From NCBI GenBank assembly GCA_016186425.1, contig JACPLR010000005.1, forward strand, positions 27,312 to 59,311: a stretch of DNA of 32,000 bases. Direction: 5' to 3'. Below, one piece after another: positions 15,179 through 30,204 of this stretch. Every line of letters starts with the position of its first letter. Position 1 is the first letter of the stretch. Both the position numbers and the translations under genes were made by a program. The notes beneath the pieces were generated by a model, which worked only from the letters and a program-made list of their open reading frames with translations, was not told the origin of the DNA and did not search any database. This DNA is from Candidatus Pacearchaeota archaeon (GTDB lineage: Archaea > Nanobdellota > Nanobdellia > Pacearchaeales > GW2011-AR1).

Positions 15179-15340
15179 GGAACTTACTCTAATAAATCAG
15201 GTAAAAATATGTTATGTTTTCAGAACAATTTTGAAAATACTGCAATAAACAAATTTAAAGGAAAGTTTGATAAAGAAAACCATTGGTTGTCTTTATTTTG
15301 AATCTCTACAATACTAAATTTCTTATTTAAAGAAATTTAA
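15179..15340 (+). repeat. composite intergenic repeat: X arm + 18-mer arm + hairpin element + Y module with terminal hairpin
   Basis: The 15179-15247 part matches 29748-29816. The 15258-15299 part matches 17858-17900. The 15296-15340 part matches 20503-20550 and 29798-29845. Confidence 0.8.
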
Positions 15341-17825: not shown

Positions 17826-17857
17826 TTTTATATTTTTTATTTATTTGATTCATTTAA

Positions 17858-17900
17858 AAGGAAAGTTTGATAAAGAAAACCTTTGGTTGTCTTTATTTTT
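17858..17900 (-). repeat. stop-codon-abutting hairpin element (RNA sense: AUAAAGACAACC-AAA-GGUUUUCUUUAU followed by CAAACUUUCCUU)
   Basis: 12-bp stem with one conserved C.U mismatch at 17870-17896, 2 nt downstream of the rps12 stop (17899-17901). Near-identical copy at 15258-15299. Confidence 0.75.
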
Positions 17901-25923: not shown

Positions 25924-25950
25924 ATAAGAAGAACCTATGGTTCTTTTTAT
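25924..25950 (-). repeat. hairpin element (RNA sense AUAAAAAGAACC-AUA-GGUUCUUCUUAU) abutting the ancestral rpoB stop codon
   Basis: Same architecture as 17870-17896. It overlaps the last base of the TAA at 25950-25952. Confidence 0.6.
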
Positions 25951-29494: not shown

Positions 29495-29747
29495 ATTTAC
29501 AAATAATAGTTAATTTATTTAGGTTTAGGTTAGTTTAATAAGGGCATTTACAACTTTCCAATACTAAACATTATCAAAAATTGGTTTTTAAACCTTTCTA
29601 TTTTTTTGGAAAGGTTAAAATTCTTATTATAAGAATAGTGTTATTAATTAGTTAGGAAAATAAAAAGATTATAGATTAGTGGATTTTAGATATTTGTATA
29701 TAGCTTATAAAATATTTTAATCTCTAGATGATAATTAATAAAAATTT

Positions 29748-29845
29748 GTAACTTACTCATTAAAATCAGGTAAAAATATGGCATGATTTCAAAACATTTT
29801 TGAAAATACTGCAATACTAAATTTCTCTTTTTAGGAGAAATTTAA
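29748..29845 (+). repeat. archetypal full copy of the intergenic repeat family (leader gtaacttactcattaaaat + X arm + 18-mer arm + Y hairpin)
   Basis: gtaacttactcattaaaatcaggtaaaaatatggcatgatttcaaaacatttttgaaaatactgcaatactaaatttctctttttaggagaaattt. Confidence 0.85.
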
Positions 29846-29950
29846 TAGAGGTTTAAGTTAATTTTAGAATAATGATAGGTTTAATACCTTGTTATTTTTT
29901 TAGAATACTTTAAAAACATTATATTCTTTTTGAGCTACGAGATTATATAT

Positions 29951-29966
29951 AATGGACCCATAGCTC
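29951..29966 (+). repeat. 16-nt direct duplicate of the tRNA-Lys 5' end (atggacccatagctca)
   Basis: Identical to 30048-30063, 97 nt downstream. Confidence 0.9.
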
Positions 29967-30049
29967 AATAAGGGAAGTATCCCTTATGAACCCTCAAGCA
30001 TTGAGTAATTCATTTTCTTGAGATTCAACAACGCTATGATTCCATAGAT

Positions 30050-30204
30050 GGACCCATAGCTCAGCCTGGTTAGAGCACTGGCCTTTTAAGAATAAAGACA
30101 ACCTAGTGGTTTTCTTTATGAGTTTTCCCTTGAGAAAGCATCTCCCTTAAATAGGAAGAGAAAAAGAAAGCCAGGTGTCGGGGGTTCGAATCCCCCTGGG
30201 TCCA
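30050..30204 (+). tRNA. tRNA-Lys (anticodon UUU) with ~80-nt intron after position 37
   Basis: Hand fold gives acceptor GGACCCA/TGGGTCC (7/7), D arm GCTC-AGCCTGGTTA-GAGC, and anticodon stem CTGGC/GCCAG with loop CTTTTAA. The variable region is GTGTC, the T arm is GGGGG-TTCGAAT-CCCCC and the discriminator is A. The intron spans ~30089-30168. No CCA is encoded. Confidence 0.85.
30092..30119 (+). repeat. copy of the stop-proximal hairpin element inside the tRNA-Lys intron
   Basis: ataaagacaacc-tagt-ggttttctttat. Both 12-nt arms are identical to the transcribed-sense arms at 17870-17896 and 15270-15296. Confidence 0.85.

Follow-up and report, generated by a model that had tools for sequence, protein, structure and literature searches.

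The stretch of DNA analysed here (the window, 32,000 nt) belongs to a Candidatus Pacearchaeota genome of 868 kb (0.87 Mb) with 30% G+C and 88% completeness, designated G000; its sister species is designated G007, and the other G numbers denote congeners. Open reading frames were called with a simple in-house script. The gene for tRNA-Lys(UUU) (30050–30204, plus strand) belongs to a locus with the order rpoB–rpoH–tRNA-Lys–dut, comprising a 5′ exon (30050–30088), an intron (30089–30168), and a 3′ exon (30169–30204), as delimited with Rfam and ARAGORN -i. A preliminary description had proposed that a canonical tRNA results once ca. 80 nt following position 37 are removed, and this is borne out by the Rfam model RF00005, which covers 30050–30204 (+) with 56.5 bits and aligns with one insertion, of 81 nt, that follows CUUUUA and hence position 37. 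ARAGORN in its intron mode places the intron at the same site, reporting tRNA-Lys(ttt) with an 80-nt intron, while in its default mode it found no tRNA in the whole window. The intron thus occupies the canonical 37/38 site, with ends ambiguous by 1–2 nt because of the A runs at its boundaries. Rfam searches of the locus at both gathering and permissive thresholds returned the tRNA alone, BLAST revealed no second tRNA-Lys(UUU) copy in the 88%-complete genome, and a metagenome scan for population variants of the exon–intron junction gave no match. With the Rfam threshold only 26 tRNA genes are detected in the entire genome. Introns interrupt at least 19 of the tRNA genes found, many of these introns being 60–115 nt long. 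Default tRNA finders miss such intron-bearing genes, and the tRNA sets of genomes of this kind are likely under-annotated.

The minimum-energy fold of the tRNA-Lys(UUU) precursor (z = −4.0 relative to shuffled sequences) contains the cloverleaf arms, a CUUUU/AAAAG helix, a 3-nt bulge at the 3′ splice site, and three intron hairpins. The predicted central splice helix is formed by the intron strand AAAAG, which together with the bulge AAA spans 30162–30169, and its partner CUUUU at 30083–30087, in agreement with the earlier proposal that the 3′ part of the intron pairs with the anticodon loop. That proposal went further and assumed a bulge–helix–bulge motif. Parts of it are present in the fold, namely the helix CUUU(U)/(A)AAAG and, on the 3′ side, a bulge of 3 nt, but neither a strict 3-nt bulge at the 5′ site nor the h′ helix. 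The latter cannot form because both strands are purine-rich there, and the predicted fold places the 5′ splice site within a junction of 4 nt that directly precedes the first hairpin (HP1). The modelled motif is thus of the relaxed bulge–helix–loop form. The same form is predicted for the hairpin-free 18-nt intron of tRNA-Lys(CUU), and therefore a hairpin set in the loop leaves the splice motif intact. In all five hairpin-bearing tRNA introns of G000 the four bases preceding the last two of the intron pair with positions 32–35 and are followed by a 3-nt bulge. G000 has a single splicing endonuclease gene (PF01974, 105 bits), a 191-aa open reading frame, and DPANN endonucleases of this type have been linked with a larger number of disrupted tRNA genes (PMC5829648). 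The Lys-UUU intron would then be an ordinary protein-spliced archaeal intron at position 37/38, whose purine-rich 3′ end would pair with anticodon-loop bases 32–35 to give a 4–5-bp splice helix with a 3-nt bulge, and which the single 191-aa enzyme would excise.

Two inserts specific to G000 are present at the locus besides the intron, and together they separate the predicted promoter from the downstream tRNA by 112 nt. The TTTAAAAA box at 29909–29916 (+), regarded as the ancestral tRNA-Lys promoter, has its predicted start at 29938, and a unique 112-nt insert (29938–30049, +), absent in G007, separates it from the gene, so the tRNA transcript is predicted to carry a leader of ca. 112 nt. The insert contains a 14–16-nt duplicate of the tRNA 5′ end, atGGACCCATAGCTCA, at 29954–29967, followed directly by a short-stemmed F-type hairpin, ATAAGGGA-AGTA-TCCCTTAT (29968–29987); a hairpin of the same type opens the Gly-GCC intron of G031. 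A second intron, located in the D-loop and making use of the duplicated 14-nt 5′ end, is not favoured, a complementary splice motif not being apparent. Farther upstream, at 29695–29895, there is a copy of another abundant repeat, for which the genome gives at least 50 matches of 74–92% identity; it, too, is absent from the G007 locus.

The intron itself appears to be composed of one full repeat module, a remnant of a second one, and the purine-rich 3′ end. HP1, at 30092–30119 (+), reads ATAAAGACAACC-TAGT-GGTTTTCTTTAT, as had been noted by direct reading, and pairs as 7 + 4 bp around a fixed C·U mismatch. It is followed by a pyrimidine tail, GAGTTTTCCCTT (30120–30131, +), predicted to pair with GAAAGC at 30134–30139 (HP2), and by the remnant of the second module, a B-type tail GCATCTCCCTTAAATAGG folded as HP3 (UCUCCCU/AGG..GAGA; 30141–30161, +), with a 16-nt match to the B tail at C4:7402-7417. 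The arms are identical to those of two minus-strand copies with 3-nt loops, ATAAAGACAACC-AAA-GGTTTTCTTTAT at 17870–17896 and ATAAAGACAACC-AAT-GGTTTTCTTTAT at 15270–15296, and, as originally stated, all three are oriented alike with respect to the transcription unit next to them; in shuffled versions of the window 0.00 matches to the arm pattern are expected. The resemblance claimed for the trailing sequences is partial, as GAGTTTTCCCTT agrees with CAAACTTTCCTT at 7 of 12 positions and differs at the remaining 5. GAGTTTTCCCTT is a recurrent sub-variant, A2, met also at C1:6822 and in several half units of the family described below. The identification of the neighbouring genes holds as well: one is the gene for ribosomal protein S12 (PF00164, 3.8e-40), whose reading frame ends 2 nt before the copy that, with its tail, spans 17856–17896 (−), and the other is msrA (PF01625, 6.2e-65), whose frame ends 171 nt before the copy at 15256–15296 (−), with other repeat DNA between, this copy being nested in a larger repeat common to four other loci. 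A further copy in the window, of subfamily B, ATAAAAAGAACC-ATA-GGTTCTTCTTAT, lies 167 nt downstream of rpoB at 25924–25950 (−; C23:53235-53261).

The hairpin is a member of a genus-specific family and no private element of three copies. In G000 the family numbers 103 full hairpins in five subfamilies and ca. 50 tandem half units, ca. 150 copies in all, and a search with the arm pattern returned 25 exact or near-exact copies per strand against 0 for a reversed-pattern control. The module has a purine arm and a pyrimidine arm of 12 nt each, the latter with a mismatch, a loop of 2–4 nt between them, and a pyrimidine tail that terminates in CC; the subfamilies differ by compensatory changes and each retains the fixed mismatch. 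The arms of HP1 are the same as in 29 other copies of subfamily A. Half units comprise the 3′ arm and tail without the purine arm and stand in tandem behind full units; arrays with units of 34–37 nt (3′ arm, tail, and AATAGCCAA) are frequent behind full hairpins, for example at C6:28900-29020, C21:29000-29080, and C9:16810-16970 of G000. The same subfamilies occur in 11 of the 18 other congener genomes searched, with 1 to ca. 65 pattern matches counted on both strands, and 12 genomes representing 8 other families of the order gave none; the repeat is thus specific to one genus of Candidatus Pacearchaeota (DPANN). It is worth adding that another repeat family (AACCACC-NGC-GGGTT... followed by TCCTGCAACC) lies in tandem next to tRNA genes in G009, G012, G014, and G005, and also inside the Gly-CCC intron of G000 (C29:39618-39771), and does not follow the mirror rule described below.

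The strand opposite to the hairpin has the appearance of a promoter. In the genome-wide profile of G000, the sequences upstream of genes are T-rich (TTT) at −29 to −27, A-rich (AAA) at −24 to −22, and A-rich at −34 to −32, with no Shine–Dalgarno signal upstream of start codons, and the genes of this genome are predicted to be leaderless. A promoter weight matrix trained on 722 element-free upstream regions was applied to the opposite strand of the elements, and for 67 of the 103 copies the start that it predicts coincides with the hairpin end (0/+1); the mean score of family A is 6.3 bits, compared with 5.66 bits at the 99.9th percentile of random windows. In 27 copies (6.3 expected) a gene end is found no more than 8 nt from the end of the 5′ arm, these comprising 17 start codons on the other strand and 10 stop codons on the hairpin strand, while the tail end lies so close to a gene end in a single copy. 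The intergenic module may then be a dual-use cassette, one strand of which would provide a BRE/TATA promoter starting leaderless mRNAs and tRNAs flush with the hairpin end, and the other would lie directly behind stop codons and tRNA 3′ ends. The module resembles archaeal BRE/TATA leaderless promoters in that its opposite strand combines a TATA-like box with a BRE-like, purine-rich tract, at the spacing usual for G000, and it differs from these core promoters in being a repeated, near-identical cassette fused to a hairpin. The term 3′-UTR element, used previously for the rps12 and msrA copies, is incomplete, as the opposite strand is BRE/TATA-like and flush with start codons, and as the msrA copy is 171 nt past the stop codon and inside another repeat.

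Twenty-five tRNA introns in 12 genomes of the genus, representing 10 tRNA types, bear such a hairpin, always in the sense orientation and with its onset 0–5 nt past the 5′ splice site. These 25 cases are not 25 independent events, and the sense-only count is overstated, because introns are inherited and copied between tRNAs. G000 has five of them, in the Lys-UUU, Gly-GCC, Glu-UUC, Tyr-GUA, and Gly-CCC (variant) genes, and G007 four, in Lys-CUU, Gly-GCC, Arg-UCU, and Trp-CCA. The Arg-UCU and Trp-CCA introns of G007 are nearly identical over ca. 75 nt while their exons are unrelated (C31:6291-6457 and C5:5093-5278). In the orthologous Gly-GCC intron the type of hairpin varies by species (A, B′, H, F, J-like, or an unrelated hairpin), and therefore modules have been exchanged at this site. 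In G004 and G018 the place of the family hairpin in Gly-GCC is taken by another, perfect hairpin that is not related to it and has the reverse polarity, AACTTTTCTTT-AAAA-AAGAAAAGTT.

The Lys-UUU intron is most likely a recent gain, acquired after the split from the sister species. RpoB of G007 is 91% identical to that of G000, compared with at most 84% for all others, and its rpoB–rpoH–tRNA-Lys–dut locus is syntenic. There the two exons of tRNA-Lys(UUU) agree with those of G000 to 100% (5′) and 96% (3′), and the gene is uninterrupted. Of the 21 genomes compared, five have a Lys-UUU intron, and in G012, as in G000, it bears a hairpin; at least 14 congeners, i.e., G007 and at least 13 others, the next three closest included, are intronless at this gene. 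It is this syntenic intronless ortholog with its near-identical exons, together with the at least 13 further intronless congeners, that argues for recent gain, the direction being assigned by parsimony without a species tree. Along its full length the intron is most similar to the G007 Lys-CUU intron (75% identity) and to the Glu-UUC intron of G000 itself (70%; 75% in the 3′ part), while its identity to the Lys-UUU introns of other species is 35–61%; elsewhere in the genome its 3′ half gave no significant match. It would have been gained by copying a module-bearing intron or a cassette array. Simple gene conversion from tRNA-Lys(CUU) was rejected as the route, since the anticodon and the inner stem pair would have been converted too, yet they remain of the UUU type. 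The comparison of the filled (G000) and the empty (G007) site gives a possible 3-nt AAG repeat, chance-like in A-rich sequence.

The joint explanation that we prefer, and to which a probability of about 0.62 may be assigned, is that the hairpin is a module of the family described, that between genes this module serves as a dual-use cassette, that the Lys-UUU intron is spliced and was gained recently, and that within it the module is probably just compact, self-folding filler, with its antisense promoter degraded. Of the two possibilities raised in the preliminary description, a mobile module that has colonised an intron fits best. A mobile or copyable module is favoured because the family has ca. 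150 copies, the sister site is empty, and the hairpin subfamilies of Gly-GCC swap between species. On the other side is the lack of a cognate transposase: the only Y1 gene in G000 is flanked by unrelated GC-rich hairpins, and neither terminal repeats nor a clear target duplication were found for the module. The Y1 gene is of the IS200/IS605 type, codes for 137 aa, and lies at C19:42477-42821 as the sole copy.

The other possibility, of a function common to the intron and the gene ends, amounts to the hairpin and tail being a functional RNA motif, a protein-binding site or a small triple helix, wherever they are transcribed in the sense direction, that is, at mRNA and tRNA 3′ ends and in introns. 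In introns the copies would then be maintained by selection, for instance because they stabilise or mark the intron after its excision, perhaps as a circle, or because they assist the splice motif in folding. We consider this unlikely, though worth keeping in view, on account of several regularities. One is the sense orientation of all 25 intron copies (25/25), and another the intron variants of G014, G016, G005, and G009, which have lost the AT-rich TATA-like base of the stem and keep the hairpin, the C·U mismatch, and the co-varying tail. The Gly-GCC intron differs between G000 and G007 at 2 of 61 bases (97% conserved), compared with ca. 71% identity of the adjacent flank and 85% of the nearby coding DNA, a conservation suggesting that the filler role may be wrong. 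The RNA-motif reading is opposed by the existence of short introns without a hairpin, such as the 18-nt Lys-CUU one, by the absence of the Lys-UUU intron from most congeners, and by the free replacement of the hairpin type at one orthologous site, even by the unrelated hairpin of G004 and G018.

A further argument for an RNA motif comes from the tail, which in 22 sequence types repeats the top of the 3′ arm in mirror image, a stem A–T corresponding to a tail T and a stem G–C to a tail C (A–T·T or G–C·C) at 62 of 69 paired positions. At fixed stem mismatches the tail follows the 3′-arm base in 17 of 19 cases; the copies at 30108–30131 and 17856–17881 exemplify the mirror relation. The mirror score is 3.46 for tails of the own type and 1.64 for those of other types, the observed value being reached in 0 of 20,000 permutations. 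A signal (p = 0.00075) is obtained with a direct-repeat model as well, but the mirror model discriminates better and alone accounts for the C-run preceding the tail core, which tracks the C-run of the arm (n = 0–3). Two other relations were discarded: the tail as the inverted complement of the 3′ arm gives no signal (p = 0.26), and when made to replace the 3′ arm opposite the purine arm it pairs at only 6 of 12 positions. The mirror regularity is of the kind that the base rules for a triple helix of the pyrimidine motif would give. Half units, however, retain the arm–tail relation without the purine arm, the tail in introns is predicted to be Watson–Crick-paired with the downstream purine tract, which excludes a simultaneous triplex, the triplex would be a short one, and runs of three C+ triples would be weak at neutral pH.

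A bolder form of the same idea, for which the tail–arm pattern is suggestive and which we regard as rather improbable, would have the RNA of the module fold into a small U·A–U/C+·G–C triple helix that caps transcripts at their 3′ ends where genes border on one another and shapes or stabilises excised tRNA introns, its spread seeding new introns. RNA triple helices that bury a 3′ end are known from MALAT1 and the PAN ENE. Like these, the module has a stem and a following pyrimidine tract that co-vary by the U·A–U/C+·G–C rule, and between genes its tail finishes with a T-run, at which transcription could end. Unlike them, it would have 3–5 possible triples, it has no poly(A) or A-rich tract, and the putative third strand would be the 3′ tail itself. 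If the triple helix were real, one strand of this DNA would serve as a promoter, while the other would specify a triple-helix RNA element.

As to the age of the intron, the contrary view would have it old and vertically inherited, lost in the sister species and most congeners, with its arms homogenised by gene conversion. Four other congeners have Lys-UUU introns, three of them hairpin-free and one (G012) with a subfamily B hairpin, so repeated loss is possible. The five introns at the site all end in AAAGAA or AAAGAG, the one in G012 bears a hairpin as well, and tRNA-Arg(UCU), without an intron in G000 and with one in G007, G016, G012, and G014, displays the reverse pattern and thus demonstrates that losses occur. 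Inheritance from a distant ancestor is nonetheless improbable, as the sister and the three next-closest species are intronless at a syntenic locus, the G000 intron is nearer to the Lys-CUU and Glu-UUC introns (70–75%) than to any Lys-UUU intron (35–61%), and the locus holds two further lineage-specific insertions.

It is very improbable that the intron copy has been kept as a working antisense promoter, whose RNA, extending across the tRNA 5′ exon, would regulate tRNA-Lys or its upstream region. The BRE/TATA-like match on the minus strand (30111–30133) predicts a start at ca. 30092–30093, offset by −1 from the hairpin end, and its 3.7–3.8 bits exceed the mean of real promoters (1.8), while the copy in the Gly-GCC intron scores 6.0. 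The match, antisense to the tRNA, is however weak, its 3.8 being the second-lowest score among the 30 copies of subfamily A (ca. 6.6 is typical); no leaderless reading frame or RNA gene is next on the minus strand, the rpoH start being 597 nt off, and the intron variants of other species have no TATA-like box at all.

The intron of euryarchaeal tRNA-Trp houses a box C/D guide RNA. The Lys-UUU intron is similar in being canonical and in housing a structured RNA module that can be reused, but it can practically be dismissed as a known small RNA of this sort, since in spite of its length (80 nt) and structure (precursor z = −4.0) it has neither RUGAUGA (C) nor CUGA (D) boxes within 30089–30168 and gives no Rfam match other than tRNA even at permissive thresholds.

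The preferred reading, of a copyable module recently installed in a spliced intron, has parallels in other repeats and introns. REP/BIME sequences, MITEs (Correia elements), and archaeal IS200/IS605-derived palindrome-associated elements are short imperfect palindromes of high copy number found at gene ends; some elements of the REP/MITE type supply promoters or terminators, and their copy number varies widely between related species. The module differs from them in having no terminal inverted repeats with target duplications and no matching transposase that could be found, as well as in the copies flush with start and stop codons, the tandem half units, and the single orientation in tRNA introns. 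The closest parallel among introns is in Thermoproteales, for which tRNA intron families common to different tRNA genes have been described and ascribed to intron transposition (Fujishima et al. 2010, as cited in PMC4033280); in bioRxiv 10.64898/2026.10.13.758758 these families served as a positive control. As in Thermoproteales, introns of different tRNA types in one genome are similar (Lys-UUU and Glu-UUC in G000, Arg-UCU and Trp-CCA in G007) and the presence of introns turns over fast between close species. With 70% identity, Lys-UUU and Glu-UUC form an intron family in the sense of at least 70–80% identity between at least two tRNA types in one genome. Unlike in Thermoproteales, all the cases are at the canonical 37/38 site, and the DPANN host has a single short endonuclease instead of the crenarchaeal two-subunit enzyme. 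Moreover, the shared part is here found between genes as well, as an abundant repeat whose opposite strand is promoter-like, and therefore a donor pool outside the tRNA genes becomes visible.

What is new is the presence of repeat hairpins in 25 tRNA introns, a probable recent gain of the Lys-UUU intron, and its full-length likeness to introns of other tRNAs. How archaeal tRNA introns arrive is an open question, and an identifiable source for them is still generally lacking. Here a probably recent intron in a syntenic ortholog, the empty site of the sister species, an abundant repeat making up most of the intron, and related introns elsewhere are visible together, and the route of acquisition therefore becomes testable. 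For the repeat, the splicing system may be a safe harbour inside an essential gene.
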